DNA of 29,203 bases from positions 1 to 29,203 of the forward strand of contig JBAXWY010000035.1 in assembly GCA_037128175.1 (NCBI GenBank). The letters are read 5' to 3'. The DNA is from Methanothrix sp. (GTDB lineage Archaea; Halobacteriota; Methanosarcinia; Methanotrichales; Methanotrichaceae). The translations under genes and the position numbers were made by a program. Every line of letters begins with the position of its first letter. The first letter of the stretch is position 1. Of the stretch, positions 895 to 28,576 are shown one piece after another. A model generated the notes under the pieces. The model had not been told where the DNA came from, ran no database searches, and saw only the letters and a list, made by a program, of their open reading frames with translations.

Positions 895-2922
895 ATGATC
901 AACCGCATGGATAGAGGTGCGCTGGATGCGGCAACATCCGACGTCCATTTCATGAGGCATTATGAATATGTGATGGCCCGCTTTGATAGCTACATGAATC
1001 CATCTAACGGCTGGTTTTGCACCCGTGTAGCTGATCCGGAAAGGTGCAAGATCGCCTACTTCTCGGCGGAGTACGGCCTGCACCATGCCCTGCCCTTTTA
1101 TGCGGGCGGTCTCGGCTTTTTGGCGGGAGACTTTCTCAAGGAGTGCAGCGACCTGGGTCTGCCTCTGGTGGCATTAGGATTCATGTACCCGCAAGGCTAC
1201 TTGCGTCAGATGATCTCGCCGGACGGCTGGCAGATGGGGGCCTGCGAGATGATGGACCGGGAGAATGCACCTATCAGGAAGATGGTGGATGCTAATGGAG
1301 ATCCCATCACCATCAAGGTGCCGGTCATGGACCCGTCTATTAATTTGGAGGTCTGGAAGGTCCAGGTGGGAAAGACCAGCCTTTATTTGATCGATACCTC
1401 CAGCGAGGCCAACGAGCCCGGGAATCGCGTCATATCCGACCGGCTTTATACCGGCGATCTGGAGCAGCGCCTGCGCCAGGAGATAGTCCTTGGCATTGGG
1501 GGCGTATGCATCTTGCGCCATCTGGGGGTGGACTATTCCGTTCTTCATTGCAACGAAGGCCATCCCGCTTTCGCCATCCTGGAGAGGATTCGGGAGAAGG
1601 TAGAGGGAGGCATGAGCTACAGGGAGGCCTTCGAGCAGGTCAAGAACACCACGGTTTTTACTACTCATACGCCGGTGCCCGCTGGCCATGATGTCTTTTC
1701 CTATCCGCTCATGGACAAGTACTTCGGCTCCTATCTGCCCACGCTGGATCTCTCCCGGGATGAGCTCTTTCGCCTGGGGACGAATCCGGCCAGGCCGGAG
1801 GGCTTTAACATGACTGCCTTTGCCCTGCGCAGCAGTGCTTACCGAAATGCAGTGAGCAAGAAGCACGGAGAGGTCAGCCGTGAGATGTGGCAGCCGCTTT
1901 GGCCAGAACTTGCCGTGGACAGGGTTCCCATTGAGCACATCACCAATGGGGTGCACGTGCCCTCCTGGATTGATCGGCGCCTGGGTGATGTGATATTCAA
2001 CCGCTACCTCGGACGAACATGGCTGGAGGAGCACGATCAACCTGCTATCTGGCAGCTGATTGACGAGATACCGGACAGCGTTCTCTGGGAGCATCATCGT
2101 TTCATGAAAGAGATGGCAATTGCCAAGATAAGAGAACGGGCCCGCAACAAGTGGCACAAATCCGGTTCGGACTCCAATAATGTCATGGCCTCCGGGGTGC
2201 TGCTCGATCCTGCAGCCCTCACTTTAGGCTTTGCCAGGCGCTTTGCCTCCTACAAACGGCCCACGCTCCTCTTGCATGATATTGCCCGTCTGACAAAGAT
2301 CGTGAGTGATACCGAAAGGCCGGTGCAGATCATCTTTGCCGGCAAAGCTCACCAGGACGACCAGCAGAGCAAGCAGCTCTTGCAGCAGGTCTTCAATGTC
2401 GCCAAGGACCAGGCATTTGGAGGGCGCATCGCCTTTGTGGAGGACTACGATGAGCTCCTGGCGCAGTATCTGGTGCATGGCGTTGATGTCTGGGTGAACA
2501 ATCCCCTGCCGCCCATGGAGGCGAGCGGAACGAGCGGCATGAAGGCGACGCTAAACGGCGTTCCGCAGCTTTCCGTCCTGGATGGCTGGTGGATTGAAGG
2601 CTACAACGGCTTGAACGGCTGGGCAATTGAGGGCGCGAGAGAAGGGCCGGACAGGGACGCGCATGATGCTGCTGCCATCTACGATCTGCTGGAGAAGGAT
2701 ATTGTGCCGCTATTCTACGATGTGGACGAGGATGGTGTCTCGCACGGCTGGGCGGCAGTCATGAAGGAGGCCATCAAGATGACCGGGCCGCTCTTCTCCG
2801 CTCGAAGAATGGCCAAGGAGTACACGGAGAGGTTCTATCGTAAAGCCCTGAACGAAGCCATGAAGACGGATCGCAGTGGGGAAAGAGGGAGCCGCAAAGG
2901 GGATATGTTCGGCGGGATCTAA
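895..2922 (+). CDS. glgP: Alpha-glucan (glycogen/maltodextrin) phosphorylase, GT35; main body, original start probably 733
   Basis: Motifs AYFSAEYG, YAGGLG, HCNEGHPAF, FTTHTPVPAGHD, ITNGVH, FARRFASYKR, and the PLP-lysine motif EASGTSGMKA. Confidence 0.93.
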   Translation: MINRMDRGALDAATSDVHFMRHYEYVMARFDSYMNPSNGWFCTRVADPERCKIAYFSAEYGLHHALPFYAGGLGFLAGDFLKECSDLGLPLVALGFMYPQGYLRQMISPDGWQMGACEMMDRENAPIRKMVDANGDPITIKVPVMDPSINLEVWKVQVGKTSLYLIDTSSEANEPGNRVISDRLYTGDLEQRLRQEIVLGIGGVCILRHLGVDYSVLHCNEGHPAFAILERIREKVEGGMSYREAFEQVKNTTVFTTHTPVPAGHDVFSYPLMDKYFGSYLPTLDLSRDELFRLGTNPARPEGFNMTAFALRSSAYRNAVSKKHGEVSREMWQPLWPELAVDRVPIEHITNGVHVPSWIDRRLGDVIFNRYLGRTWLEEHDQPAIWQLIDEIPDSVLWEHHRFMKEMAIAKIRERARNKWHKSGSDSNNVMASGVLLDPAALTLGFARRFASYKRPTLLLHDIARLTKIVSDTERPVQIIFAGKAHQDDQQSKQLLQQVFNVAKDQAFGGRIAFVEDYDELLAQYLVHGVDVWVNNPLPPMEASGTSGMKATLNGVPQLSVLDGWWIEGYNGLNGWAIEGAREGPDRDAHDAAAIYDLLEKDIVPLFYDVDEDGVSHGWAAVMKEAIKMTGPLFSARRMAKEYTERFYRKALNEAMKTDRSGERGSRKGDMFGGI

Positions 2923-3001
2923 ACAAATCATCTCCAAGGCACTCCTTTGCGAAGGGTTTATCTACCTTCATGCCAACCCGGTGGTTTCAAAGGTCATCAC
3001 C

Positions 3002-4072
3002 ATGATTTCTAAAGAGGATATTCAGGAGATTTTGAAGGGATACGATAAGAACGACCTAACCATTGCCACCATCTGCTCACACAGCAGCCTGCAAATTTTC
3101 CATGGTGCGCGCCTGGAGGGCTTCAAAACCATTGGAATTTGCATCGGTCAGCCGCCTCGGTTCTACGACGCCTTTCCCTTAGCCAAGCCGGATAAGTTCT
3201 TCTCCGTAGAGAGCTATAAGGCACTCTTGGATTATGCCGATGATCTCGTAGCCGAGAACGTGATCATAATTCCGCACGGCTCTTTGGTTGAGTATTTGGG
3301 AATCGAGAGGTTTGAGTCGCTGGCTGTTCCCACTTTTGGAAACAGGCGCGTTTTAGCCTGGGAGAGCGACCGGGAGATGGAGCGAGAATGGCTTCTCAAG
3401 GCCGGGGTAAACGTTCCCATGCGATTTGAAAAGGCGGAAGACATCGACCGGCCGGTCATTATAAAATATCACGGCGCTAAAGGCGGTCGGGGTTTTTTCA
3501 TTGCCAAGACCAAAGAAGAGCTGCAATCAAAGATGAACTCGGAGGAGAAGTACACCATCCAGGAGTTCATCTTAGGCACCAGGTATTACATTCATTTCTT
3601 CTATTCGCCCATAAAACAGGAAGGGTATCTTCTGCGCAAGGGCTCTTTGCAGATGCTGGGCATCGATCGGCGCGTGGAGTCCAATGCCGACGAGATCTTT
3701 CGCATCGGCAGCATGAAAGAGCTGGCCGAGGCTGGCATCTATCCCAGCTTTGTGGTCACGGGCAACCTGCCGCTGGTGCTACGCGAGTCTCTCTTGCCCC
3801 GCGCCTTTGAGCTGGGAGAAAGGGTCGTGGAAACCAGCCTGGAACTCTTCGGCGGGATGATCGGCGCCTTCAGCCTGGAAACGATAGTCACCGACGAGCT
3901 GGAGTTCAAGGTCTTCGAGATCTCGGCCAGAATCGTCGCGGGCACCAATCTCTATGCAAGCGGATCGCCCTACTCGGATCTTATTGAACCGGGCCTCTCC
4001 AACGGCCGGCGTATCGCCCAAGAGATCAAGTCGGCCAATGAGCGGAACCTGCTGCATGAGATTATATCTTAA
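3002..4072 (+). CDS. purP: FAICAR synthetase (formate-dependent AICAR formyltransferase), ATP-grasp PurP
   Basis: IATICSHSSLQIFHGA..EGF.T, IPHGS, GAKGGRGFF, ID.R.ESN.D, VV.GN.P.VLRESLL, FEISARIVAGTN. ATG 3002 (MISKEDI) fits the family better than the 2876 start, which overlaps glgP. Confidence 0.93.
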   Translation: MISKEDIQEILKGYDKNDLTIATICSHSSLQIFHGARLEGFKTIGICIGQPPRFYDAFPLAKPDKFFSVESYKALLDYADDLVAENVIIIPHGSLVEYLGIERFESLAVPTFGNRRVLAWESDREMEREWLLKAGVNVPMRFEKAEDIDRPVIIKYHGAKGGRGFFIAKTKEELQSKMNSEEKYTIQEFILGTRYYIHFFYSPIKQEGYLLRKGSLQMLGIDRRVESNADEIFRIGSMKELAEAGIYPSFVVTGNLPLVLRESLLPRAFELGERVVETSLELFGGMIGAFSLETIVTDELEFKVFEISARIVAGTNLYASGSPYSDLIEPGLSNGRRIAQEIKSANERNLLHEIIS

Positions 4073-4098
4073 ACCTGAAAAGAAAGGCTTATCTTGGA

Positions 4099-5310
4099 AT
4101 GGTCTCTATTGGTGCCAATATGTCAGGCCTTATTAAGACATTCCAGGAGGCCACGCTGCTCCAGTGCGGCTTTTTAGAGAAGCTGCTCGATCTGGACATG
4201 GCAAGCGTTGCTGCCTTTTCCGATTCCATGGTGGAGTTTTTGAGACCGTCGCCGGACAACAAGTTCGTTTATGGCCTGGCGGCGGGCCGGTCCGCTCTCG
4301 CTCTTTACAGCTTCTTGCAGCTTATCCAAAACCACTTCGATAACGTATTTCCGTTCACCCTGGAAGATCCCGTGCAAAGGCACTACCGCAAGGGCAAGAA
4401 TCTGGGGATAGCCATATCCGGCTCCGGAGAAACACAGGCCGTAAATAAATACATAGGTGATATCATCACTCTGGGGGGAGATATCAAGCTGATAACTGCC
4501 AATGAGAATGGAACCGCCTATAAAATGGTGAGCGAGTACGAGCGAGGATCGGTTCTGGTGTTCACGGCCCGGACAAAACAATCCACGGATAAAGATACGA
4601 GGTCGCGGCTCTCTCCCATGGGCACGGAGTTTGAGTTGCAGGTACTGGCCTTTTTAAATGCACTTTTCAGAGATATCCAGTCCCGGCTGAAAGATGTTTG
4701 TGATCCTACCTGTCCGGAATACCGCACCACAATAAAGGACTTTGAAGAAAACGCTCGCCTTATCTCCCAAATGGATCCCGAGCATTTGGAGTACTGGTTT
4801 GGCAGGCTGCTGCCTCGCAGTGGAAGATACATTATCGGAGGCGTGGGAAGATCCGGCCTGGTGGCCCGCGCTTTTGAGATGAGGTTCACCCATTTAAACA
4901 AGATCAGCTACTGGGAGAGAGATTTCAATACGCCCAGCTTTCAGATAGGAGACGTTTACATTCCCATAACCGGAATTGGCAACACCTATGAGGCCTTGGA
5001 GGGAACGGTCACGGCTCTGAAAATGGGCGCTGATGTGATGCCAATTACCGCCAATCCCTCATCGCGACAGGTACTGATTCTTAAAATGCATGGCAAGGAG
5101 AAGGACATTGCCGTGATACCTGTAAAGCCGGAATACAGAGATCTCTTCAGCGGAGACACCAGCTCCACCACCTGGCTGATGTCCGAATATACTAAATTCA
5201 GAAATCCTATCTTTGAGATCAATGCATCCGTGTTCACCAACAGCGTGGTGGCTGTGGGCGCGGAGTTTTTGGGCATCTTGGAAACGGGCATGAGAAGGAT
5301 GCACGTGTAA
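4099..5310 (+). CDS. Tandem SIS-domain protein, two divergent 6-phospho-3-hexuloisomerase (Phi/HxlB)-like domains
   Basis: Domain 1: AGRSAL, ISGSGET, ITAN, SPMGTEFE. Domain 2: GVGRSGLVARAFEMRFTHL, ITGIGNT, ITANP.S, FE, MRRMH. Start may be ATG 4120. Confidence 0.75.
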   Translation: MVSIGANMSGLIKTFQEATLLQCGFLEKLLDLDMASVAAFSDSMVEFLRPSPDNKFVYGLAAGRSALALYSFLQLIQNHFDNVFPFTLEDPVQRHYRKGKNLGIAISGSGETQAVNKYIGDIITLGGDIKLITANENGTAYKMVSEYERGSVLVFTARTKQSTDKDTRSRLSPMGTEFELQVLAFLNALFRDIQSRLKDVCDPTCPEYRTTIKDFEENARLISQMDPEHLEYWFGRLLPRSGRYIIGGVGRSGLVARAFEMRFTHLNKISYWERDFNTPSFQIGDVYIPITGIGNTYEALEGTVTALKMGADVMPITANPSSRQVLILKMHGKEKDIAVIPVKPEYRDLFSGDTSSTTWLMSEYTKFRNPIFEINASVFTNSVVAVGAEFLGILETGMRRMHV

Positions 5311-5418
5311 ACTTCGCCTTTTGGGGATTGGAAATGGCATGATTCCGGGCTCAAATAGGCGGAGAAGCCCGGTTCATGTTCATCCCTTTGCAAAGAACAC
5401 ACACTGCCGGCAAAAACG

Positions 5419-5570
5419 TCAACCATGTCGTTTTCCCGTCAAGAGACAATCTCCCCAGTAGAAGACCCATACATCGCAGGATGAACCACCTGGAAAGGTG
5501 CATTTGCCATCTTCATATATATTTCCAAGTATATATTTCCAAGGCTAATGCATTTAGCGATAGCAGGGCC
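5419..5570 (-). pseudogene. Remnant of a DUF333 (putative hemolysin-like, 4-Cys) domain, frameshifted by a 14-bp tandem duplication
   Basis: Removing one copy of TATATATTTCCAAG (5516-5529/5530-5543) gives minus-strand GPAIAKCISLGNIYEDGKCTFPGGSSCDVWVFYWGDC, matching the NPA..C...G....G.C.FPDG..C..W.F.RG.C pattern. No start codon found. Confidence 0.6.
5516..5543. repeat. Exact 14-bp tandem duplication TATATATTTCCAAG x2
   Basis: Read directly from the sequence. Confidence 0.95.
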
Positions 5571-5616
5571 AATAGACTGGTATGTTAACAAAAACTGATA
5601 ACTACTTATAGTCAGA

Positions 5617-6045
5617 TTGCTACATATCTTTAGAGGTTATTTAGGAGGGATCATAATCCGAAACGCTTTGTTAATATTGGTTTTGGTTTCCTTTGTAGCA
5701 GTCATATCTACATCGCAAGGGCAAGCTTGGGGTCTTAGTCCCGATGCAGGAGAAGCTTCCTCTGGTGGGTATGGCGAGACGTCGATCACCTACTCATCAT
5801 CCGGTTACTCCAGTGATCAAGGACCAGGATACTCATTTAATACCGTACCACGCGAAACCAAAACAATAGTCGCTCCGCCTCAGACGATTCAACCAGGCAC
5901 TACCAGTCCGGCTGCTCAGACCTTCCAGGCGCCAGAGGACACTGGACAGCAAGCAGCACTTACATACAACATTTTAGCCAACCAACCAGTTGCAGTCTTC
6001 TATGCTCAGGCCATACAGCCCTGGCAGACCTTCGTCTCTATATAA
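5617..6045 (+). CDS. Putative secreted Ser/Thr/Pro/Gln-rich protein, possibly a truncated pseudogene
   Basis: Signal-peptide-like RNALLILVLVSFVAVISTSQG. The RBS AGGAGG (5643-5648) is followed by ATA (5653) rather than ATG. The ORF ends abruptly. Confidence 0.5.
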   Translation: MLHIFRGYLGGIIIRNALLILVLVSFVAVISTSQGQAWGLSPDAGEASSGGYGETSITYSSSGYSSDQGPGYSFNTVPRETKTIVAPPQTIQPGTTSPAAQTFQAPEDTGQQAALTYNILANQPVAVFYAQAIQPWQTFVSI

Positions 6046-6082
6046 ATTATCATTGTCTGCAATCTAAGCAAAGGTGAAAGAA

Positions 6083-6793
6083 ATGAATGCTAAGTTGGTG
6101 ATGACATCGGTGGTGTTTGCCGTCTTTATTTTTTTGTCGGCAACCGCCTTAGCTCAGCCTGACCCGTACGATCAATATCCTTCCGGGCCTGATTATCCTG
6201 GACCGGATTATCCATCTGATCCAAATTATCCTGGATCGGATTATCCAAACTACCCCACAGACCCCTACAATCCCGGACCTCAACAGGGTCCTGTGACCGT
6301 TCCTGGATCGAGTGGCGGCGATGGAGGACACCCGTCTGACGGACCAAGCAGCTCACAGCCTCTTTCTACACCATCAGGTTCCAATACCGAGGCCCTGAGC
6401 TATTCTGAAGGGCAAGCTCTTAGCCAGCAAGAGGTGGCAAGCAGCGGAATGATGGCCTCAGGAAGTGGAATGGCCTCTGCCGACAGATCGATGGCTTTTA
6501 TGATGGTAACCGGGCTGCAGATCTGGACCCGATACAATGGAATGTGGACAACAGATCCCGCGTCGGTCTTCTTCTGGAGAAGCACCAGCATTCTGTCTAA
6601 CAACGATCAGGCTCAAACCGTGTGGTCCTGGGAGCGATATCCCAATGGGCAGCAGATCTGGCGCAACCTGGGTTACAGAATGCCCGGATACTTCCATGGT
6701 CGATTCATTGGTGATGCCCGAGGCTGGCACCAGCTGGCCATGTGGAGCAGCAGATCCGGCTGGAGCAATGTGGTCTGGATCTACGTAAGGTGA
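6083..6793 (+). CDS. Secreted/surface protein with P-D/N-Y-P repeats, Ser/Gly linker and Trp-rich C-terminal domain
   Basis: Signal peptide KLVMTSVVFAVFIFLSATALA; repeats PDYP/PNYP; C-terminus WHQLAMWSSRSGWSNVVWIYVR. AAGGTGA RBS before ATG 6083 (alternative start GTG 6074). Confidence 0.75.
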   Translation: MNAKLVMTSVVFAVFIFLSATALAQPDPYDQYPSGPDYPGPDYPSDPNYPGSDYPNYPTDPYNPGPQQGPVTVPGSSGGDGGHPSDGPSSSQPLSTPSGSNTEALSYSEGQALSQQEVASSGMMASGSGMASADRSMAFMMVTGLQIWTRYNGMWTTDPASVFFWRSTSILSNNDQAQTVWSWERYPNGQQIWRNLGYRMPGYFHGRFIGDARGWHQLAMWSSRSGWSNVVWIYVR

Positions 6794-6805
6794 AATAAGA
6801 ATCGC

Positions 6806-6847
6806 GGAGGAGATTTAGGAGTTTCAACTCTCTGGGCTCCTCCTTTA
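6806..6847. terminator. Stem-loop between convergent genes (possible terminator)
   Basis: GGAGGAG (6806-6812) pairs with CTCCTCC (6837-6843), with an inner GAGTT/AACTC pair and a following T run. Confidence 0.5.
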
Positions 6848-6874
6848 TTCATTTAGATATAAACGATTTTAATC

Positions 6875-7678
6875 TCAAAGCCCCCCAAACCTCTGCACAT
6901 GCTCCCAGGCTTTGTGCTCCTGCGGGAATTGATCCTTTCGAGAATAGATGGAAGCATCCATCCGCCCAAAGAGCTTTCTGTCCACTCCCACCGGGCAGAC
7001 TTTGATGCATATCCCGCAGGGCGATATTCCCCGCTGGTTCAGCTCGGCGCTGTGGGCGGTGCAGCTTTTCTTGTCCGTGAGCCCTTGCGGATAGTCCTTT
7101 TCATCCAATGCATTCGCCGGGCACATCTTGACGCAGCGCATGCAGCGGGTGCACAGTCTTTCATCGAGGAGCGGATCGGCTGGAAGCTTTGCTGCTGTGA
7201 AAACTGAGCCGAAGCGCACGCGTGGGCCAAACTCTCGCGTGAGCAACATATTGTTTGTCCCGAAATTGCCCAGACCCGCCAGGAGGGCTGCGTGCCGGTG
7301 GGAGAAGAAAGCCATTGGATTTTTCAGCAGGGCCTTGATGCCGAAGTAGCCGTCCCGAGGAACGAAGACGGACGGGTGGCCCATATCGCTCAGATAATTG
7401 GCCAGGCGGTAAGTGTACTGGTCCAGCAGGCTGTTTACGGTGTTGTACAGCTCCCGGTAATAAATGGAGGGTGACGTCTCCAGCACGGGCAGACTGACGG
7501 GAAGGCCAATGACTATTACCGATTTCGCCTGGGGAAATATGGACTCTGGATAAAACTCCTCCGGCATCCAGGGCACAAAGGGTGGATCCTTCCAGCGCTC
7601 TACGCTCGCCACACCCATCAAAGGTATCTCCATCTTCTTGCATCTTTTCCGGACAACTCTCAATAGATCTTCGCTCAT
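6875..7678 (-). CDS. Epoxyqueuosine reductase (QueG)/reductive-dehalogenase-like 2x[4Fe-4S] protein
   Basis: P.AKSVIVIG, FSHRHAALLAGLGNFG.N.ML...FGPRVRF.SVFT, CTRCMRCVKMCPA, CGICIKVCP. Start probably ATG 7678 (MSEDLL). Confidence 0.82.
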   Translation of the reverse strand: MSEDLLRVVRKRCKKMEIPLMGVASVERWKDPPFVPWMPEEFYPESIFPQAKSVIVIGLPVSLPVLETSPSIYYRELYNTVNSLLDQYTYRLANYLSDMGHPSVFVPRDGYFGIKALLKNPMAFFSHRHAALLAGLGNFGTNNMLLTREFGPRVRFGSVFTAAKLPADPLLDERLCTRCMRCVKMCPANALDEKDYPQGLTDKKSCTAHSAELNQRGISPCGICIKVCPVGVDRKLFGRMDASIYSRKDQFPQEHKAWEHVQRFGGL

Positions 7679-7781
7679 TGTAGTGACTTTATTCTTATCA
7701 TTATTATATGTTATCGAAGGCAAATGTTATATAGTTTTTCACGCTTAATGCTGATATAAATGCGAATAACGTGAGGCGAAT

Positions 7782-8258
7782 ATGATCGATGCCGACAAGG
7801 AGAAGCTGGAAAATATAATAAAAAAATATGATGGAAAGGAAGGTTTCTTGATCCAGTTGCTCTTAGATTTGCAAAGCGAGCTGCATTGGATCTCCAAAGA
7901 AACCATAAGGGAGCTTTCCTTGAGGCTTAAGATTCCAGCAAGCCAGATATTCAGGGTGGCGAGCTTCTACAAAGCGATGAATCTCTCGCCAGTAGGCCGG
8001 CATAAAGTATGCGTTTGCATGGGAACCGCCTGCCAGGTGCGAGGCGCTCAGAGATTGCTGGATACAACCGAGTCAAAATTGGGCATAAAATCAGGGCAGA
8101 CTACGCCGGACAATAGCTTCACGTTAAATCGGGTCAACTGCCTGGGATGCTGCGCCATCGGCCCGGTAATAGTAGTAGATGACGATTATCACGGCCGGGT
8201 GGACTCCAAGAAGGTAGAGAAAATATTGGGGCAGCTTTTGATAGTTAGTACTAGATAA
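7782..8258 (+). CDS. NuoE/HydC-like [2Fe-2S] subunit
   Basis: VASFY, VCMGTACQVRGA, VNCLGCCAIGPV. Confidence 0.92.
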   Translation: MIDADKEKLENIIKKYDGKEGFLIQLLLDLQSELHWISKETIRELSLRLKIPASQIFRVASFYKAMNLSPVGRHKVCVCMGTACQVRGAQRLLDTTESKLGIKSGQTTPDNSFTLNRVNCLGCCAIGPVIVVDDDYHGRVDSKKVEKILGQLLIVSTR

Positions 8259-8273
8259 GAAAATGGGGAATAG

Positions 8274-10247
8274 ATGGCAATACTTACATCAATTCAGGAT
8301 CTGGAGATCTTGAGAGATGAAATCGAACGCAACAGAGACCCCAGGAGAAAAGAGGTGGCAATCTGCACCGGCACCGGGTGTCTGGGCCTTGGTGCACGAA
8401 AGGTGGTCAGCGCCTTTGAAAGAGAGATTGAGAAAAGGGGTCTGGAGAGGGATATTCATATTAAGGAGACGGGATGTCCCGGCTTTTGCGAAAAGGGAAC
8501 TCTGGTAGTTGTATATCCAGAGGGAATCTATTACATGGGAGTGCAGCCGGATGATGTGCAGGAGATCGTGGAGGAGACCATTCTCAAAGGCGAGCTGGTG
8601 GCGCGCCTTCTTTACACAGATCCTGCCACCGGCCAAAAAGCAATACGGGAAGATGATATCCCATTTTATAATCATCAGATGCGATTTTTAATAAAAAATA
8701 ATATACAAATAAATCCCAAAAATATATACGACTACATCGCCCTGGGCGGTTATGCCGCTCTGACCCGTGCCTTATCGCAGATGACACCACTTGGGGTGAT
8801 TGAAGAGATTAAAAAGTCCGTTCTCAGAGGCAGGGGCGGAGGCGGATTTCCCACCGGGAAAAAATGGGAATCGACGGCGCAGTCTCCCGGCCAGCCCAAG
8901 TACGTGATCGTAAATTGCGATGAAGGAGACCCGGGTGCCTTCATGGATCGCGCTCTCATGGAGGGCAATCCGCATAGCGTTTTGGAGGGGCTGATGATTG
9001 GAGCCTATGCGGTTGGAGCGCATACTGGCTACATCTATGTGCGTATGGAGTATCCTCTGGCCGTGGAAAATGCCAAATTCGCCCTGCATCAGGCCCGAGA
9101 GCTGGGGCTTCTCGGCGAGAACATACTGGGCAGCGGATTTGATTTCGACGTATCCGTGCATAGGGGCGCGGGAGCCTTTGTCTCCGGAGAGTCAACCGCT
9201 CTCATGAGCGCCCTGGAGGGCAAAGTGGGCGAGCCCCGGCCCAAGTACGTACATACCTCGGAGTGTGGCGTCTGGAATCGACCGAGCGTCCTCAACAATG
9301 TGGAGACCTGGGCCAATATCCCTCTCATCATCAACCGGGGGGCCGAATGGTTTTCATCCATTGGAACGGAAAAAAGCAAGGGAACCAAGATCTTCTCGCT
9401 GGTCGGAAAGGTCAACAATACCGGTCTTGTGGAAGTTCCCATGGGCATGAGCCTGGCCGACATAATTTACAAGATAGGAGGCGGCATCCCTGGCGGAAAA
9501 AAGCTCAAAGGAGTGCAGACAGGAGGGCCCTCGGGAGGAATAATTCCGGCCCGGCATTTGCAGACCCCGGTTGATTTCGACGAGCTTACGAGCCTTGGCT
9601 CCATGATGGGCTCAGGCAGCATTATTGTCATCGACGAGGAGACCTGTGCTGTCGATTTGGCCCGCTACTTTGTGGACTTCCTATGCGACGAGTCCTGCGG
9701 CAAGTGCCTGCCCTGCCGGGAGGGCCTGTTACGAATGCGAGAGATTCTGGACGGCATAGTTTCCGGCAAAGGGCAGGAGGGCGACCTGCAAATTCTTAAG
9801 GAAATAGCCGACCTGATGAGAAAGACGTCGCTGTGTGCATTGGGCCTCACAGCCGTCAATCCGGTTTTAAGCACATTGTCCCACTTTCCCGATGAATATG
9901 CGGCCCATATAATCGAGAAAAGGTGCCCCTCTCTGGCTTGCAAAGCTCTTGTTTCGTATTATATCGAGCCGAAGGTCTGTATCGGCTGCGGCCTGTGCCA
10001 GAAGAACTGTCCAGAAGGAGCAATCGAGGAAGAGGAGGGCAGCAACTGTGTCATAGATCAATCCCACTGTACCAGATGCGGCATTTGCTTCGATGTCTGT
10101 CCGCCCAAAACCCGCGCAATCAAGAAGGTCTCCCCCGTACTTTCCCCGTCTTTTTCTTCTTCTTCCTCTTCTTCCTCTTCTTCCTCTTCTTCTTCCTCTT
10201 CCTCTTTGACCCGTTTAGGAAAGGCAAAAAGTGGTGATAAGGCATGA
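8274..10247 (+). CDS. NuoF/HydB-like FMN/NAD(P)H-binding subunit with N-terminal [2Fe-2S] and C-terminal 2x[4Fe-4S] domains
   Basis: CTGTGC...GCPGFC, LRGRGGGGFPTGKKW, NCDEGDPGAFMDR, GAGAFVSGESTAL, NNVET, GGPSGG, ESCGKCLPCREG, SLCALG, CIGCGLCQKNCP/CTRCGICFDVCP. Confidence 0.93.
   Translation: MAILTSIQDLEILRDEIERNRDPRRKEVAICTGTGCLGLGARKVVSAFEREIEKRGLERDIHIKETGCPGFCEKGTLVVVYPEGIYYMGVQPDDVQEIVEETILKGELVARLLYTDPATGQKAIREDDIPFYNHQMRFLIKNNIQINPKNIYDYIALGGYAALTRALSQMTPLGVIEEIKKSVLRGRGGGGFPTGKKWESTAQSPGQPKYVIVNCDEGDPGAFMDRALMEGNPHSVLEGLMIGAYAVGAHTGYIYVRMEYPLAVENAKFALHQARELGLLGENILGSGFDFDVSVHRGAGAFVSGESTALMSALEGKVGEPRPKYVHTSECGVWNRPSVLNNVETWANIPLIINRGAEWFSSIGTEKSKGTKIFSLVGKVNNTGLVEVPMGMSLADIIYKIGGGIPGGKKLKGVQTGGPSGGIIPARHLQTPVDFDELTSLGSMMGSGSIIVIDEETCAVDLARYFVDFLCDESCGKCLPCREGLLRMREILDGIVSGKGQEGDLQILKEIADLMRKTSLCALGLTAVNPVLSTLSHFPDEYAAHIIEKRCPSLACKALVSYYIEPKVCIGCGLCQKNCPEGAIEEEEGSNCVIDQSHCTRCGICFDVCPPKTRAIKKVSPVLSPSFSSSSSSSSSSSSSSSSSLTRLGKAKSGDKA
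10155..10205 (+). repeat. TCT/TCC microsatellite encoding 17 consecutive Ser near the NuoF C-terminus
   Basis: Pure pyrimidine run of TCT/TCC codons, read directly. Confidence 0.95.
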
Positions 10248-11719
10248 CCAGGTTGAAAATCAAGATCGATGGTCATGCGATTGAGATGGATGCTGGTCAG
10301 GCCACTATCCTGGAGGCGGCTAGGCTTGCCGGCATCCACATCCCGACGCTATGCCATCATCCTTCTCTCAAGCCCTATGGGTCTTGCCGGCTGTGCACTG
10401 TGCAAATCGTTAAAAATGGCCGGAAAAAGTTTGTCACCGCCTGCAACTATCCGGTAGAGGAGGGCCTTGTTGTAATTACCGATTCTGCGGAAGTGGCAGA
10501 CATCAGGAAGATGATCCTGGAGCTTCTCATAGCCCGATGCCCCCAGGAGAAGAGATTGCAGGAAATGGCCGGAGAATATGGGATTTTCAAGACACGCTTC
10601 TTGCCGGGGGATAAAAATTGCATCCTCTGCGGACTATGCTACCGGATCTGCGATGAGCTGGTGGGCGTCTCGGCCATAAATGCTCAAAATCGAGGAGTTT
10701 CCAGGGATGTAGATACGCCCTATGGAGAATTATCGGAAGACTGCATTGCATGCGGGGCCTGTGCCCTGGTCTGTCCCACGAAGTCCATACTGGAAAGAAA
10801 AAACATTTACCCGCTCTCCTCTGTCGATATCAAAGAGATGGAAGAGGAATTCCTGTGCGGAACGATTGATAATGATTTGGGTGTCAACAGGGAAATGTTT
10901 GCCGGCAAGAGCAACATTGAGGGGCAAGATGGAGGCATGGTAACCGCAATTCTCCAGCAAGGAATTGAGATGGGGCTCTTAGATGGGGCGGTGGTAGCCC
11001 AAAAAAATAAAAGCTGCGGCGCGAATGCTGCTTTTGTTGGTGAAACTGAATCGATTTGGCAGGCAAAGGGGACAAAATACGTGCGCGTCTCCGTCATCGC
11101 CCCGCTCCTGGAGGCCTTGAACCAGGGCAAAAGGAGAGTTGCCGTTGTCGGCACGCCCTGCCAGATCCGAACGGTCAGAAAATTGCAGAGGCAGGGCTAT
11201 TTTAATGATAAATTTCTGGACGCAGAAATATTTCTTATCGGCCTCTTCTGTTTCGAAAGCTTCGATTATGAATCCCTTAAAAGCCGCATGGGAGAGCTTT
11301 TCGGCGTAGATCTGGATAAGGCCGAAAAGATGCAGATTGCCAGAGGGAAATTCATAGTGACAGTAGGCGGCAAAGAGCACTCCTGCCCGGTGCGGGAGCT
11401 TAAGAACCAGGTGAGGGCAGGCTGCCCGTTTTGTGGTGATCTGGTCAACCGGCTGGCAGATATTTCCATAGGCTCGATTGGAAGCGCGGAAGGATACTCC
11501 ACGGTGATCGTCAGATCGGAGCGTGGGGCGCGGCTGTTGGAAGCGGCGTCGTTTGACCGAAAAGAGATAGACCGAGAAGAGATCATCAAGCTGGCTGCAA
11601 TTAAGAAGAAAAATGCAGATAAAAAATTTGCAGGGATCGTGGCCGGTCTGCCGGAACGATTTGAGACGGAGAAGAGGGAATGTGCAACTGTTTGCAGCAA
11701 TTTTGGAATATTATCTTGA
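10244..11719 (+). CDS. Fusion of NuoG/HydA-like N-terminal Fe-S domains ([2Fe-2S] + 2x[4Fe-4S]) and an FrhB/FdhB F420-binding domain
   Basis: IPTLCHH...GSCRLC...TAC; CILCGLCYRIC; CIACGACALVCPT; then QDGGMVTA, GTKY, VGTPCQI, IGLFCFESF, GCPFC.D....ADISIGSIG...GYSTVIVRS. ATGA overlap with the upstream gene. Confidence 0.9.
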   Translation: MTRLKIKIDGHAIEMDAGQATILEAARLAGIHIPTLCHHPSLKPYGSCRLCTVQIVKNGRKKFVTACNYPVEEGLVVITDSAEVADIRKMILELLIARCPQEKRLQEMAGEYGIFKTRFLPGDKNCILCGLCYRICDELVGVSAINAQNRGVSRDVDTPYGELSEDCIACGACALVCPTKSILERKNIYPLSSVDIKEMEEEFLCGTIDNDLGVNREMFAGKSNIEGQDGGMVTAILQQGIEMGLLDGAVVAQKNKSCGANAAFVGETESIWQAKGTKYVRVSVIAPLLEALNQGKRRVAVVGTPCQIRTVRKLQRQGYFNDKFLDAEIFLIGLFCFESFDYESLKSRMGELFGVDLDKAEKMQIARGKFIVTVGGKEHSCPVRELKNQVRAGCPFCGDLVNRLADISIGSIGSAEGYSTVIVRSERGARLLEAASFDRKEIDREEIIKLAAIKKKNADKKFAGIVAGLPERFETEKRECATVCSNFGILS

Positions 11720-20600: not shown

Positions 20601-21650
20601 TCATAATGCCATTGCTACCAGATCAACCAGATCGATTACCTTTTCACCGGCCCCCGCATCTCTCAGATTTCTGACGCAAAGAGGACAGGAGGTGACGATG
20701 TAGTCTACCCCCACAGGAACGTCTTCTAGCCTCCTTTTGGCCATCTTCAGAGATAGATCCTTGTAGCCGGCCCGAACCCCGCCCCCGCCTCCGCAGCATC
20801 TGGCCGCCTTTCCTGACGCTTTCATCTCTTTGAGACGGCAGATGGCTTCGATAACCTGGCGCGGCTGCTCATAGATCTGGTTATGCCGGCCCAGATGGCA
20901 GGGATCATGATAGGTTACAGTAAGATCCAGTGGATTGATACCTATTTCCGAGATTCTCTGTGCTAAGAACTCCGGGACGCTCAGCACACGAAAATCCTGG
21001 GGGTAGCTCTTCTTAAGTGTAGTGTAGCAGCCTGCGCAGCCCGTAATTACAGTTCCGGCTCCCGTCTCTGCGATCTGCCTGCAGTTCTCATCCACAAATC
21101 GCCTGGCATCAAATCCGGTACGCAGCAATGGCGAGCCGCAGCACTGCTCATTTGGGAGCATTGTTGCCCCAAAACGATGCAGAAGTGCAAAGGTATTGGC
21201 CGCGGTCTCGGTATAACGGTAGGAGTTCATGCAGCCGGCAAAATAGACATAGTCTGCCTTTTTTGTGAGAAGGCTTCTGTCTGTCAACCAGGATAGCCGG
21301 TCTTTTGCGTCGCCAAAAGTGTTGCCGCTCGCAAAGATATTTCGGCAAAGATCAGCTTGCTGGCATGTCATCGCTCCATTGGAGACAAGCAGTCTTCTGG
21401 CGCTCTCAATCATCTCTGGTGGGTTCACGCCGGCCGGGCAGTTTTCCGTGCATATCCCGCAAGTGGTGCAGGTATTCAGGCTGTCTAAAACCTGCGAGTC
21501 GGGCTGAAGGCCACAAGTGAGTCCCTTTAGGATCATAATGCGCCCCCTGGTATTGGCTGACTCCCAACCGGACTGCTCGAAGACTGGGCAGAAGGTGCGA
21601 CAGGTTCCGCATCGCACACATTGATTGATCGCCAATAGATCGAGATTCAT
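20601..21650 (-). CDS. GlcF-like Fe-S oxidoreductase (2x[4Fe-4S] + two CCG domains)
   Basis: CVRCGTCRTFCP, CTTCGICTENCP, FAGC, CCGSP, YHDPCHLGR, CCGGGGG, SCPLC. Confidence 0.88.
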   Translation of the reverse strand: MNLDLLAINQCVRCGTCRTFCPVFEQSGWESANTRGRIMILKGLTCGLQPDSQVLDSLNTCTTCGICTENCPAGVNPPEMIESARRLLVSNGAMTCQQADLCRNIFASGNTFGDAKDRLSWLTDRSLLTKKADYVYFAGCMNSYRYTETAANTFALLHRFGATMLPNEQCCGSPLLRTGFDARRFVDENCRQIAETGAGTVITGCAGCYTTLKKSYPQDFRVLSVPEFLAQRISEIGINPLDLTVTYHDPCHLGRHNQIYEQPRQVIEAICRLKEMKASGKAARCCGGGGGVRAGYKDLSLKMAKRRLEDVPVGVDYIVTSCPLCVRNLRDAGAGEKVIDLVDLVAMAL

Positions 21651-23024
21651 TCAAAGCCCCATCTTTCCTGGATTTAAGATCCCCTGGGGGTCCAGTGCTC
21701 TTTTTATGGATTGCATCACAGAAAATGCCTCTGTTCCGACTTGCTCCGGCAAATACTCCGCTCGAGCCAGGCCAATGCCGTGCTCGGAGCTGACTGTTCC
21801 GCCTAGCTCCATAGCCGCTCTATGAATTCTATCCGCGGCGAGTCGCAGCTTCTCCCATTGCTCTTTATTCATGACATCTATGAAGAGGGCTACATGCAGG
21901 TTCCCGTCTCCAATATGGCCGTATTTCATGGCCGGGATATTTAGCTCTGTGGTGATCTGTTGCACCTTTTTAATCAAAGCGGGAATCTCCTTAATAGGCA
22001 CGCCTACATCCTCACCCATATAGATGCGGGTTTTCGTGGGATCAAGCCGGGATATGGCAGCACCTACCAGTCTTCTGGCCGCCCAGATGCTGTCCATCTC
22101 CGGGCCTACAGCTAATCTCACACTTTTGGCCGTAGGTTGGCAGATCTCACAGATTTGCCGGGCAGCCTCAGCGGTTGAACTTTCCGTTCCATCCACTTCG
22201 AATAAAATTACATCTCCGTCCTCGGGTATGGCAAGTAGCGCATCGCAAAGTTTCAGGACCTGCAGAGTTGTTCTGTCCAGTATCTCGCAGGCAGAGGGGG
22301 TGATGCCGTTTGAAAATATCCTTATTACTGCCTGGCCGGCGATTTCGGCCTCAACAAAACATGCCAGCACAAGTTTTCTTGTACTTGGCAAGGGGGCTAT
22401 TTTCAGTCCGGCTCTGGTGATGATTCCCAACGTTCCTTCCGATCCCACAAAGAGACGGGTAAGATCGTACCCAGCAGATGATTTGAGCACCTTTTTACCG
22501 GTATGAATGACACGGCCATCTGCCAGCACCACCTCTAAATCAAGGACGTAATTTCTCACAGTTCCATATTTGACGGAGCGCATGCCGCTGCTGTTGTAGG
22601 AAATCATTCCACCGAGGGTGCACATGGCCAGGCTTCCCGGATCGGGCGGGAAAAAAAATCCGTAGGGCAACAGGGCAAAATTGAGCTTTTCAGCTACTAC
22701 ACCAGGCTCAACGATGACCTGCTGGTTTTCAATATCTATTTCCAATATCCTGTTCATTCCTGACATGTCCAGGACAATGCCTCCTCTAACCGGAGAGCAT
22801 CCGCCGGCAAGCCCGGTGCCCGCCCCCCGTGCCGTGACGGGGATAAGGTGTTCGCCGCATAGCCTTAGGATGCATGAGACCTGGCTCGTGCTCTCCGGTC
22901 GCACAACAAAGTCGGGCAGGCCAACGACTTGAGATGCGTCGCCTGCGTAGCAACACCTTTCGCCAGGAGAGGCAGATACCCTGTCTCCAACAATCTCTTT
23001 TAGCTCACGCAGAATATCTGTCAT
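21651..23024 (-). CDS. GlcD/D-lactate dehydrogenase-like FAD-linked oxidoreductase
   Basis: RGAGTGLAGG, FFPPDP.S, TLGG, KYG, GYDLTRLFVGSEGTLGIIT, GHIGDGNLH, EHGIG, DP.GILNPGK. Confidence 0.92.
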   Translation of the reverse strand: MTDILRELKEIVGDRVSASPGERCCYAGDASQVVGLPDFVVRPESTSQVSCILRLCGEHLIPVTARGAGTGLAGGCSPVRGGIVLDMSGMNRILEIDIENQQVIVEPGVVAEKLNFALLPYGFFFPPDPGSLAMCTLGGMISYNSSGMRSVKYGTVRNYVLDLEVVLADGRVIHTGKKVLKSSAGYDLTRLFVGSEGTLGIITRAGLKIAPLPSTRKLVLACFVEAEIAGQAVIRIFSNGITPSACEILDRTTLQVLKLCDALLAIPEDGDVILFEVDGTESSTAEAARQICEICQPTAKSVRLAVGPEMDSIWAARRLVGAAISRLDPTKTRIYMGEDVGVPIKEIPALIKKVQQITTELNIPAMKYGHIGDGNLHVALFIDVMNKEQWEKLRLAADRIHRAAMELGGTVSSEHGIGLARAEYLPEQVGTEAFSVMQSIKRALDPQGILNPGKMGL

Positions 23025-27176: not shown

Positions 27177-27188
27177 GGGAGGTATTTA

Positions 27189-27716
<528 letters not shown>

Positions 27717-27719
27717 AGC

Positions 27720-28574
27720 ATGAATGAAGCGGTAGACGTAACCCTGCCTAGCGGCTGCTGGATAGAGGAGAAATGCCACAAAAGTGCCTCCTTACGTCCT
27801 TTTTGCGGAGACGATGAGGCCATCTTGCTTGAAGCAGGTGGTGTCCTCCTTCCGGCCCAGTGGACAACGGCTTTGCTGGCTCGATGCCTGATCCAGCTGG
27901 GCACGCTTAACAAATTCACTCTCGAAACGGTCCGATCGTTAAATGTGGGCGACCGGGAAGCTCTATTGCTTCACCTGCGTCGCATCACCTTGGGAGACAG
28001 TCTTTCCTGCCTGGTGGTCTGTCCGGCAAAAGGCTGCAGTGAGAAGATTGACCTGGACTTGAAGGTGAGTGATTTGATACTCCCTCCTTACTCTGATGTT
28101 CAACCATTGTATGATATATCATTAAGCGAAGGGGAAAAAACCTACAAGGTAAGTTTTAGGCTGCCAAGAGGAGGCGATCAGGAGGCAGTTGCCACATTGG
28201 CCAGGACATCTCAGCAGGCTGCGGAGGATCTATTGCTGAGCAGGTGCGTGCAGAGCATAACTGCAGAGGATGGTGATGCTGTTGCCATTTCGCCGGAAAT
28301 TGCCACGAGAATTTCGAGCGCTATGGCTGATCTTGACCCCCAGGCGGAGCTGAAGTTGAATCTGCGCTGTCCCGCATGTGGGGGTAGCTTCTCGGCACTC
28401 TTCGACACTGCCAGCTACCTATCTCAAGAGCTTGCCGGACATATGGAGAACATCTACAGGGAGGTTCATCTGCTTGCTTTCTATTATCATTGGAGCGAGG
28501 CTGAGATCATGAGCATGCCTTCCCAGAAGAGGCAACGATACCTGGAGCTTTTGGCTAATGCTCTAGGGGAGTAG
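27720..28574 (+). CDS. Tail/baseplate assembly chaperone-like protein (two C-x2-4-C units plus a C-terminal YHWS motif)
   Basis: L.VGDR..LLL.LRR.T.G....CP..C; FRLP.G.DQ; DPQAE..L...CPACG; EVH.LA..YHWSE.EI..MP...R.RYL. Confidence 0.75.
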   Translation: MNEAVDVTLPSGCWIEEKCHKSASLRPFCGDDEAILLEAGGVLLPAQWTTALLARCLIQLGTLNKFTLETVRSLNVGDREALLLHLRRITLGDSLSCLVVCPAKGCSEKIDLDLKVSDLILPPYSDVQPLYDISLSEGEKTYKVSFRLPRGGDQEAVATLARTSQQAAEDLLLSRCVQSITAEDGDAVAISPEIATRISSAMADLDPQAELKLNLRCPACGGSFSALFDTASYLSQELAGHMENIYREVHLLAFYYHWSEAEIMSMPSQKRQRYLELLANALGE

Positions 28575-28576
28575 TG

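Follow-up and report, generated by a model that had tools for sequence, protein, structure and literature searches.

What is the function of a gene cassette that encodes the core of an electron-bifurcating hydrogenase and in which the hydrogenase domain appears to be replaced by one of the type that serves coenzyme F420? This question is raised by a locus of Methanothrix sp. (Methanotrichaceae) on contig JBAXWY010000035.1 of assembly GCA_037128175.1, the whole of which, i.e., positions 1 to 29,203 of the forward strand, was analyzed and is referred to here as the window. The source genome comprises 2.96 Mb in 98 contigs, is 99.8% complete, and has the window as its contig 35. According to the open reading frame (ORF) listing of the window, the cassette consists of three coupled ORFs on the + strand (positions 7782-11719), designated bfuC, bfuB and bfuA; a spacer of 15 nucleotides (nt) lies between the first two, while the second and third overlap through a 4-nt ATGA stop/start. 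The initial annotation, made from the sequence alone, had described these as genes for a NuoE-like subunit, a long NuoF-like subunit and a NuoG/HydA-type N-terminus fused to FrhB, and ORF and Pfam analysis located all three at the positions given (Table 1), with domain scores well above what chance would produce. The encoded complex, BfuCBA, is very probably a member of the Bfu family that carries an FrhB module. It is further proposed, with a probability of about 0.6, that BfuCBA would be a soluble heterotrimer in which an FrhB-type module for F420 and flavin adenine dinucleotide (FAD) has replaced the H-cluster domain of the A subunit, and that it would bifurcate and confurcate electrons among F420, nicotinamide adenine dinucleotide (NAD) and ferredoxin.

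The extended B subunit had initially been taken to be of the bifurcating type, and solved relatives, diagnostic residues and extra clusters all argue for this assignment. BfuB scores above the Pfam cut-offs for PF01512 (149.9 bits), PF10531 (the SLBB domain; 32.5 bits), PF10589 (105 bits) and PF00037 (29.8 bits), and its N-terminal [2Fe-2S] domain was recovered by Pfam (25.0 bits, with a cut-off of 24.8) as well as by the NCBIfam model for clostridial 2Fe-2S ferredoxin (E value 6.3e-20). The NCBIfam NuoF equivalog TIGR01959 was not reached (457.4 versus a cut-off of 558.65). BfuB is the sole match to PF01512 genome-wide, i.e., the genome possesses one NuoF-type gene. The N-terminal [2Fe-2S] domain, the C-terminal 2x[4Fe-4S] domain and the DEGDPGAFM motif had each been noted at the outset and were all found in place; an H-x4-CP-x3-C site had also been described, of which the site itself (H545, C551 and C556) stands, but the spacing was off by one, the actual arrangement being H545-x5-C551-P-x3-C556. 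In structure-sequence matches, the closest solved relatives of BfuB are all enzymes for which bifurcation was established by experiment: 7t2r_B (NiFe-HydB) and 8a6t_B (HydB of T. kivui), both with an E value of 6.5e-222, precede 9mqx_B (2.1e-212) and, further down, 7q4v_B (A. woodii), 9bov_B (1.5e-191), 7p5h_B (T. maritima), 9n5u_B (5.1e-188) and 8oh5_B (1.9e-177). Chains of the non-bifurcating Nqo1/NuoF type matched at approximately 1e-100 and over the core only (5.5e-105 for Nqo1, 2fug_1).

The BfuB of the window was aligned with ten other F420-type BfuB proteins and compared with Escherichia coli NuoF. The ligands of clusters B1, B3, B4 and B5 and of the zinc (Zn) site were kept in 11/11 F420-type BfuB sequences, whereas E. 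coli NuoF is without the B5 domain, the B3/B4 domain and all Zn-site residues. Losey et al. (2020; PMC7311640) name as criteria that set bifurcating beta subunits apart from non-bifurcating ones A or E together with M in the NADH region, F near the flavin mononucleotide (FMN), GGPSG in the SLBB domain and extra Fe-S domains; BfuB possesses A222/M224, F302 and GGPSG at residues 417-421, and the corresponding positions of E. coli NuoF read T/K, Y and GGAGT. Li et al. (2025; PMC11829005) describe the minimal bifurcation site as a ‘flavobicluster’ in which the B1 [4Fe-4S] cluster, FMN and the C1 [2Fe-2S] cluster are combined, and assign Zn to the site formerly called ‘B2’; a conserved His (and Cys) of this B2/Zn site is reported to be lacking in non-bifurcating homologs (PMC9304861). 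The C1 cluster would be housed by BfuC, which matches the thioredoxin-like [2Fe-2S] NuoE domain PF01257 (164.9 bits, E value 1.3e-48) and whose ligands C79/C84/C120/C124 were kept in 20/20 aligned sequences including E. coli NuoE, and hence in 19/19 BfuC proteins. As judged from these ligands, the flavobicluster and the Zn site are fully encoded by BfuB and BfuC.

In BfuA, the four Cys of the [2Fe-2S] domain, the eight Cys of the ferredoxin domain, the four Cys of the FrhB cluster and the FrhB core motifs, e.g., QDGG at residues 228-231, were invariant in 15/15 sequences from distant hosts. Residues 5-180 find their best solved match in the 247-amino acid (aa) short BfuA 9mqx_A (E value 6.8e-42), and the FrhB part matches Fsr (7npa_A, 1.5e-39, from aa 165 or 167 to 456), FrhB (3zfs_C, 2.8e-38) and 8rja_E (over aa 126-469). 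Since the matches from both halves overlap in the ferredoxin domain, this domain is considered to be the fusion junction. Full-length relatives of BfuA in Methanothrix exhibit 77-90% identity, and the nearest named record is a Methanothrix metagenome-assembled genome (MAG; 89%). In agreement with what had first been observed, Pfam and NCBIfam searches returned no H-cluster, NiFe or molybdopterin domain in the three proteins: the FeFe_hydrog_A6 model of NCBIfam scored 130.8 against a cut-off of 765, with its best stretch at residues 5-102, and the NuoG equivalog TIGR01973 scored 78.3 against 470, with no molybdopterin-like C-terminal domain detected by Pfam. A pairwise alignment with the NuoG-type FdhA of the same genome indicates that BfuA is also without the ~54-residue region of the His-ligated [4Fe-4S] cluster. 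By its sequence, the FrhB part is a paralog distinct from hydrogenase FrhB and from FpoF. No hydrophobic 19-residue segment above 1.5 on the Kyte-Doolittle scale was found in BfuA, BfuB or BfuC (the MscS protein of the same window reaches 2.39), and a soluble complex is therefore expected.

The Bfu family was defined by Schut et al. (2022; PMC9304861) by a BfuB in which the FMN-binding Nuo51 domain is combined with SLBB, the NuoF Fe-S region and a ferredoxin-type 4Fe-4S domain, by a BfuC that is a thioredoxin-like [2Fe-2S] protein of the NuoE type, and by a BfuA with, as a minimum, one 2Fe-2S and one 4Fe-4S ferredoxin-type domain; according to Pfam, BfuA, BfuB and BfuC all conform to this definition. 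The function initially proposed on the basis of the architecture is likewise supported at the sequence level, both by the bifurcating-type BfuB and by the matches of the FrhB part to Fsr and FrhB (~1e-39).

Table 1. Features of the bfuCBA cassette and its immediate surroundings (positions in the window)
Feature	Position	Strand	Basis
Putative promoter and ribosome-binding site of bfuC	7722..7781	+	read from sequence
bfuC, NuoE/HydC-like subunit, 158 aa, C1 [2Fe-2S]	7782..8258	+	PF01257
bfuB, long NuoF/HydB-like subunit, 657 aa; FMN/NAD(H) site and predicted ferredoxin-reducing end	8274..10247	+	Pfam, NCBIfam, structure matches
BfuB thioredoxin-like [2Fe-2S] domain (B5), C31/C36/C68/C72	8346..8576	+	Pfam, aa 25-101
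BfuB FMN/NAD(H)-binding domain (Nuo51), DEGDPGAFM aa 216-224, GAGAF with F302	8808..9323	+	PF01512
BfuB B1 [4Fe-4S] (C475/C478/C481/C521) and Zn site (C458/H545/C551/C556)	9645..9941	+	PF10589, aa 461-545; alignment
BfuB C-terminal 2x[4Fe-4S] (B3, B4), C569/572/575/579 and C599/602/605/609	9957..10106	+	Fer4, aa 562-611
TCT/TCC trinucleotide repeat, poly-Ser tail of BfuB	10149..10206	+	Tandem Repeats Finder
bfuA, NuoG/HydA-type N-terminus fused to FrhB-type F420/FAD domain, 491 aa	10244..11719	+	Pfam, NCBIfam, structure matches
BfuA [2Fe-2S] domain (Fer2_4, aa 3-81), C37/C48/C51/C67	10250..10486	+	PF13510, 55.4 bits
BfuA 2x[4Fe-4S] ferredoxin domain (aa 124-181), C126/129/132/136 and C167/170/173/177	10613..10786	+	PF12838, 35.4 bits
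BfuA FrhB domain, predicted FAD/F420 site and [4Fe-4S] (C306/C336/C394/C397)	10898..11563	+	PF04422, 45.9 bits; PF04432, 135.1 bits

From these features we infer complex formation, the use of F420, bifurcation and a physiological role, with the following putative route for the electrons. In the FrhB domain, hydride would be exchanged between F420/F420H2 and FAD, and single electrons would then pass through the four clusters of BfuA, from the [4Fe-4S] of the FrhB part via the two [4Fe-4S] of the ferredoxin domain to the [2Fe-2S]. In Fsr, which exhibits the order ferredoxin-then-FrhB, electrons are described as moving from FAD to the cluster of the oxidase domain and on to those of the ferredoxin domain (Jespersen et al. 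2023; PMC10229431). The next stop would be the B1-FMN-C1 flavobicluster of BfuB and BfuC, where NAD(H) would bind at FMN and where two electron pairs would be split or merged between NAD+/NADH and ferredoxin. The low-potential electrons would travel to or from ferredoxin through C1 and the C-terminal B3 and B4 clusters, as in NfnABC and HydABC, and, by analogy with the family, NAD(H) is a more probable pyridine nucleotide than NADP(H). The overall reaction, 2 F420H2 + NAD+ + 2 Fd(ox) <-> 2 F420 + NADH + 2 Fd(red), where Fd denotes ferredoxin, would be reversible and would make BfuCBA the F420 analogue of the NfnABC transhydrogenase. The ligand sets predict FMN, FAD, Zn and ~30 Fe (three [2Fe-2S] and six [4Fe-4S] clusters) as its cofactors. 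The potentials listed by Schut et al. (2022; PMC9304861) are -360 mV for F420, -320 mV (approximately -280 mV under physiological conditions) for NAD and -420 mV (approximately -500 mV) for ferredoxin, and arithmetic on these values gives a cost of ~+4 kJ (standard) or ~+12 kJ (physiological) for the F420H2-driven direction. The reaction would therefore lie near equilibrium and lean toward F420 reduction, which agrees with the proposal by Schut et al. (2022) that F420H2 is formed from NADH and reduced ferredoxin.

A domain and synteny survey across methanogens had been suggested in the initial annotation, and revealed that the fused BfuA and the order C-B-A recur in Methanotrichaceae, in anaerobic methanotrophic archaea of group 1 (ANME-1) and in Bathyarchaeia. 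With orthologs defined as a fused BfuA with a best E value <= 1e-80, the gene was detected in 48 of 104 other Methanotrichaceae genomes, i.e., in 37/58 of the genus of the window and in 11/46 of other genera; G037, with only a 106-aa BfuA fragment at a contig edge, was left out of this count. Across the phylum, 42 of 400 sampled genomes passed the same threshold, distributed over families f13 (36/54), f10 (2/5), f30 (2/3) and f1 (2/12), with none among the 326 genomes of the others, and matches solely of the unfused ferredoxin-FrhB type were found in 12 further f13 genomes and in one f8 genome. Family f13 is linked to ANME-1/Methanophagales by identical sequences in records so named.

Among the best 80 loci of the named-genome collection, 45 possess a fused BfuA, and their hosts are Methanothrix/Methanotrichaceae, Methanophagales/ANME-1, Bathyarchaeia (11 records), Candidatus (Ca.) Methanolliviera and unclassified Halobacteriota. 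The remaining 35 of these best 80 loci carry only a short BfuA, 34 of them in bacteria (mostly Dehalococcoidia, Anaerolineae and Desulfobacterota) and one in Methanophagales. Two BfuA subtypes, labelled here for the purposes of this analysis, were distinguished: type I with 49-90% identity to the BfuA of the window, and type II with ~39-45% identity and a different linker. The order C-B-A was observed in 18 of 20 fetched loci, the exceptions being L044 (a contig end) and L038 (a BfuA without an adjacent BfuB), and, of the named loci that were informative (n=42, six of them shared with the fetched set), 40 have bfuB directly 5' of bfuA; in the other two, both from Bathyarchaeia, it lies downstream. 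Across the 20 loci no conserved fourth gene was identified beside the cassette.

Individual loci depart from this layout in their own ways. The ANME-1-type locus L038 (G181:C46) encodes a full-length type I BfuA with neither BfuB nor BfuC in the 6 kb upstream, and its contig ends ~0.3 kb downstream. In the Bathyarchaeia loci L095 and L099 the order is reversed, with bfuB located ~0.5 kb downstream of bfuA; BfuB is encoded there by an ORF of 813-814 aa, ~160 aa longer than usual, and the additional segment may represent a fusion with BfuC. At G081:C1:430637-434080, bfuB and bfuA each match as two adjacent pieces with 77-97% identity, which points either to frameshifts and decay or to indel errors of a long-read assembly.

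Phylogenies of BfuB were computed with FastTree (90 rows) and with IQ-TREE under a mixture model (47 rows), both rooted on E. coli NuoF, which sits on a very long branch. In both trees the F420-linked BfuB proteins fall inside one clade (support 99, starred) together with the short-BfuA-linked BfuB proteins of Dehalococcoidia and a few others. Both trees also place the Methanotrichaceae BfuB proteins, with one f10 genome, in a clade (99, starred) that is sister to ANME-1 type I (99, starred, in IQ-TREE), and the Bathyarchaeia proteins in a clade of their own (99, starred). FastTree gathers all F420-linked BfuB proteins, together with one archaeal row with a short A subunit, in one set at 94 (unstarred), whereas IQ-TREE leaves their monophyly unresolved within a clade (99, starred) of which this archaeal row and six bacterial ones are also members. 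Judged by the two BfuB trees, the FrhB fusion may have arisen once or more than once. A Chloroflexota-like nuoEFG set has been described in one Bathyarchaeia MAG (Qi et al. 2021; PMC8407382), which would fit the BfuB picture if it is the same cluster.

The cassette is not the only redox locus of relevance in the genome. Two FrhB-family genes are present: bfuA and a gene on the minus strand at L008 (G000:C19), positions 6596-7807, for a standalone 403-aa protein whose N-terminal region is of the ferredoxin type and which also has a full FrhB domain. The latter scores 270.6 against a subfamily cut-off of 269 (‘F420-reducing hydrogenase beta’) and 193.7 against the 475 of the FpoF equivalog; paralogs of this type, with ~35% identity to BfuA, occur in nearly all Methanotrichaceae genomes, and the protein is probably the ‘FrhB’ of published Methanothrix models of direct interspecies electron transfer (DIET). 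Fno is also present (230.7 bits versus 149.8). A genome-wide search with PF00374 for a NiFe hydrogenase large subunit returned only a 33-bit partial match in a 609-aa ORF on another contig, which is taken to be a putative Fpo/Nuo D-type subunit. Locus L009 (G000:C16), positions 1954-6839, encodes a NuoG-type FdhA (923 aa, TIGR01591 824.9 bits), a PyrK/NfnA-like FAD/NAD protein (310 aa) and a formate/nitrite transporter, with no BfuC or BfuB beside this FdhA.

A second type of Bfu cluster was encountered in sister genomes. A BfuB-like gene is present in 72 of the 104 other family genomes, 47 of the F420 type (in 47 of the 48 BfuA-positive genomes) and 25 of a second type, which exhibits 48-55% identity to the BfuB of the window; none of these 25 genomes has an F420-BfuA. 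At second-type loci L134 (G057:C1) and L135 (G002:C1), Pfam identifies, behind BfuC-BfuB, first a NuoG/molybdopterin-like protein (745-788 aa) and then a PyrK-like one (284-288 aa); judging by ORF sizes and tblastn, L136 (G012:C17) is arranged likewise, and at L137 (G001:C136) the second-type BfuB has no adjoining A-type gene. The FdhA and PyrK-like proteins of the Methanothrix genome under study share 36% and 48% identity, respectively, with their counterparts in the second-type clusters. No clear case of both Bfu types together was found in the 104 genomes, G073 having an extra fragment of 187 aa with 47% identity. Related Methanotrichaceae genomes are not independent, and no statistics were drawn from the counts with and without the cassette.

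A number of points weigh against the proposal that BfuCBA bifurcates among F420, NAD and ferredoxin. Its specificity for F420, the preference for NAD over NADP, the ferredoxin dependence and the stoichiometry all rest on homology, and no enzyme of the F420-Bfu type is known to have been purified. The cassette is absent in 56 of the 104 other Methanotrichaceae genomes, including the near-complete G057, G078, G088, G099 and G023 (G057 and G099 being single contigs), and is therefore dispensable for the acetoclastic lifestyle. Moreover, with a standalone ferredoxin-FrhB protein and Fno in the same genome, the cell could obtain F420H2 and NADPH in the absence of BfuCBA, such that F420-Bfu is not the sole conceivable route to F420H2. 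In F420-type BfuB, the HydB Cys of GAGAFV(C/S)GE is replaced by Ser, and Val occupies the position of C476 of NiFe-HydB; the latter was considered as a ‘B2 cluster’ defect and dismissed, as this site is now assigned to Zn with Cys3His ligation (PMC11829005). As to expression, six RNA libraries match part of the stretch, and in the four metatranscriptome runs used, from four studies, short assembled contigs 92-99% alike were found on the cassette genes (4/4), three runs touching all three genes and X19 touching bfuB and bfuA only. These contigs lend weak support to expression; being environmental assemblies, they are also compatible with DNA carry-over or with close relatives, and no transcript, operon, strand or level can be read from them.

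Four other explanations were weighed against the same evidence. A plain, non-bifurcating F420H2:NAD+ oxidoreductase of the diaphorase type, with a structural or merely accessory role for the extra BfuB clusters, would make sense of the closeness in potential of F420 (-360 mV) and NAD (-320 mV) (PMC9304861), between which simple exchange needs no coupling, and non-bifurcating HydAB/HydABC relatives are known (PMC7311640). This is nevertheless unlikely, as BfuB is of the bifurcating type in each of the three residue criteria and in its additional Fe-S domains, as its closest solved relatives are without exception bifurcating, and as Fno is already available in the genome for F420/NADP exchange. 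It is very unlikely that the FrhB-type domain accepts a substrate other than F420 or acts as a mere FAD/Fe-S entry point for electrons of an unknown partner: the host lineages found are all archaeal (Methanotrichaceae, ANME-1/Methanophagales, Bathyarchaeia and relatives), the closest characterized homologs, Fsr, FrhB and FpoF, are all F420 enzymes, and the core motifs are invariant as described above. To be set against this, FrhB-family proteins occur without F420, PF04432 having matches in the Synechococcus and Bacteroides control genomes, so that the fold alone is no proof of F420 use. BfuA also stays below the cut-offs of the FrhB equivalog TIGR03289 (163.4 versus 331.5) and the FpoF equivalog NF040616 (158.8 versus 475), and even for Fsr, according to Jespersen et al. 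(2023; PMC10229431), no F420-bound structure was obtained and the F420 site is ‘presumably located’.

The genome has one NuoF-type gene and yet a genuine FdhA whose N-terminus is fully of the NuoG/HydA type, and a single BfuBC core could therefore be shared by the F420-type BfuA and this FdhA with its PyrK-like partner, formate being a fourth pool. The second-type loci with an A-type neighbor (n=3) lend themselves to this idea, since paralogous NuoG/molybdopterin-like and PyrK-like genes stand there behind their own BfuC-BfuB. However, the low identities of the resident FdhA and PyrK-like proteins to those cluster members, the separate clade formed by the second-type BfuB proteins, and the fact that the PyrK-like partner could serve FdhA alone make a shared core quite unlikely. 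There is hardly any likelihood that BfuCBA is an input (N-) module docked on a membrane-bound Fpo-like complex and feeding electrons of F420H2 or NADH into the respiratory chain. The homology to NuoEFG, the membrane-bound Nuo-type Bfu clusters predicted in bacteria (PMC9304861) and the description of the Methanothrix Fpo-like complex as being without FpoF (PMC12072023) are in its favor; BfuA, however, has neither the C-terminal molybdopterin-like domain of NuoG nor the His-ligated cluster region, no fpo or nuo membrane genes accompany the cassette in the window or in the 20 loci, and the scores stay below the equivalog cut-offs for NuoF and NuoG. Two further candidates were ruled out: a hydrogenase or formate dehydrogenase operon, for want of any H-cluster, NiFe or molybdopterin domain, and the NuoEFG N-module of Complex I, as the equivalog scores are too low, the NuoG C-terminal domain is absent and no fpo or nuo genes flank the cassette.

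The operon reading is already known as a published prediction, to which the window adds one more ortholog. The initial annotation had not excluded prior bioinformatic mention, and this was borne out decisively by Schut et al. (2022; Front Microbiol 13:946711; PMC9304861), who list ‘F420 dehydrogenase, 2 sequences’ among the Bfu types. F420-Bfu is there assigned to Type 1 Bfu and, together with the Wor, Por and Bam types, to BfuB clade 45, and is stated to occur in some acetoclastic Methanosaetaceae and not in bacteria, with none characterized. Literature searches likewise returned no biochemical characterization of F420-Bfu, as had been anticipated; the name was found in Schut et al. (2022) only, and the later Bfu papers found are without mention of F420. 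Chadwick et al. (2022; PMC9012536) report ‘FrhB8’ paralogs beside genes for a divergent NuoF and a ‘thioredoxin’, almost exclusively in ANME. F420-Bfu and these ANME ‘FrhB8 NuoF-Trx’ clusters are probably one enzyme, the two being equated by description and not by sequences. Recent Methanothrix DIET models (PMC12072023) invoke a standalone FrhB and not a Bfu complex. What the present analysis adds is a wider host range, the optional nature of the cassette, a second Bfu cluster in sister genomes and competing F420-related genes.

A broader proposal, which must be regarded as tentative and rather doubtful, is that F420-Bfu was assembled once by fusion and spread laterally as a shared redox hub of hydrogenase-poor archaea, providing the link that is so far missing between the ferredoxin, F420 and NAD pools of Methanothrix, ANME-1 and Bathyarchaeia. 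As parts of this joint claim, the complex may serve CO2 reduction during DIET in Methanothrix, disposal of reduced ferredoxin during reverse methanogenesis in ANME-1, and F420H2 supply to the tetrahydromethanopterin-dependent Wood-Ljungdahl pathway in Bathyarchaeia, and it may have originated from a Dehalococcoidia-type short BfuA and an FpoF/Fsr-like ferredoxin-FrhB protein joined at their common ferredoxin domain. The source of F420H2 is described as unresolved for Methanothrix, a major global source of methane (PMC12072023), and for Bathyarchaeia (PMC7886697), and for ANME-1 both the F420H2 question and the re-oxidation of ferredoxin are so described (PMC9012536). If the bifurcating reading is true, BfuCBA would be the first Bfu-type electron-bifurcating enzyme to use coenzyme F420, and all three soluble redox pools of methanogens and methane-oxidizing archaea would be joined without hydrogen. 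The host range of the cassette goes well beyond the two published sequences, and its optional occurrence in Methanotrichaceae offers natural comparisons with and without it.

With regard to the locus itself, the 60 nt 5' of bfuC are AT-rich and include stretches that resemble a TATA box; 5 nt ahead of the ATG stands GTGAGG, a motif similar to a Shine-Dalgarno sequence. The neighbors are unrelated housekeeping genes, encoding a QueG/RdhA-like Fe-S protein, DUF5611, a PAN-like AAA ATPase, MscS, ThiE and ThiM. The first of these, a QueG/reductive-dehalogenase-like Fe-S protein of 282 aa (positions 6875-7723, minus strand), is divergent from bfuC; beyond the window, a QueG-like ORF upstream of the cassette was found only in G074 (same genus; of similar size and on the opposite strand), and the gene therefore lies outside the conserved cassette. 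The C-terminal tail of BfuB contains a run of 17 Ser in the window and, among 11 BfuB proteins, is Ser-rich only here and in G074 and Pro-rich elsewhere; this low-complexity poly-Ser tail is, on the sequences compared, lineage-specific. Relatives at 95% identity possess a BfuB of 645 aa as against 657 aa here, which suggests that the length of the repeat varies. Elsewhere in the window, a gene pair on the minus strand (positions 20601-23024) encodes an FAD-linked oxidase (GlcD/D-lactate dehydrogenase-like, 457 aa) and a Fer4/CCG-domain protein (HdrD/GlcF-like, 349 aa). Positions 23001-29173 comprise a 1-kb stretch of very low G+C content (0.236) followed by genes for a phage-tail-like contractile apparatus, including a sheath protein (767 aa), a T4 gp19-type tube protein and a T4-type baseplate protein; this set could represent a prophage remnant or a contractile injection system.

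Comparison with known systems places BfuCBA between two groups of enzymes. The first comprises those with which it shares the BfuBC core. The gene order hydC-hydB-hydA of HydABC is the same as bfuC-bfuB-bfuA. The bifurcating [FeFe] HydABC and [NiFe] HydABCSL enzymes (7p5h, 8a6t, 7q4v and 7t2r) possess all cluster and Zn-site ligands seen in BfuB; in BfuCBA, by contrast, an H-cluster and NiFe subunits are lacking, and BfuA is without a His-ligated [4Fe-4S] cluster. NfnABC, represented by C. saccharolyticus (9bov), T. sibiricus (9n5u) and the Stn complex of Sporomusa ovata (8oh5), shares the core and would share the coupling logic, in which a hydride carrier of mid potential is coupled to NAD and ferredoxin. 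Its A subunit, however, is ~960-1180 aa long with many more clusters and carries a GltD/NfnB-like FAD domain for NADPH, where the 491-aa BfuA has FrhB. Bifurcation by NfnABC has been established by experiment. The complex of 9mqx, which we take to be a tungsten aldehyde-oxidoreductase Bfu, has as its A subunit a 247-aa stand-alone adaptor to separate catalytic subunits, in contrast to BfuA with its fused catalytic FrhB domain. That its A chain is the best solved match to residues 5-180 of BfuA and that its B chain matches BfuB is in keeping with clade 45 (Wor, Por, Bam and F420 types) as delineated by Schut et al. (2022).

The second group is that of the FrhB proteins. FrhB, FpoF and the N-terminal half of Fsr have in common with BfuA both FrhB Pfam domains, the four Cys of the [4Fe-4S] cluster and the motifs of the FAD region, and in Fsr and FpoF a 2x[4Fe-4S] ferredoxin domain directly precedes the FrhB part, as it does in BfuA. 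The partners differ: in BfuA the FrhB part is joined to a NuoG-type [2Fe-2S] domain and the BfuBC core, and in FrhB, FpoF and Fsr to a hydrogenase, a membrane complex and a sulfite reductase, respectively. The ANME FrhB8 ‘NuoF-Trx’ clusters combine FrhB, NuoF and a ‘thioredoxin’, and bfuC-bfuB-bfuA is found in named ANME-1/Methanophagales records; Chadwick et al. (2022) neither call these clusters Bfu nor link them to Methanothrix. Finally, the F420-Bfu described by Schut et al. (2022) has the same subunit set, an FAD domain for F420 in BfuA, the same host family and the same substrates as proposed for BfuCBA. There is no difference in kind between the two, the hosts recorded here being wider and comprising two BfuA subtypes.

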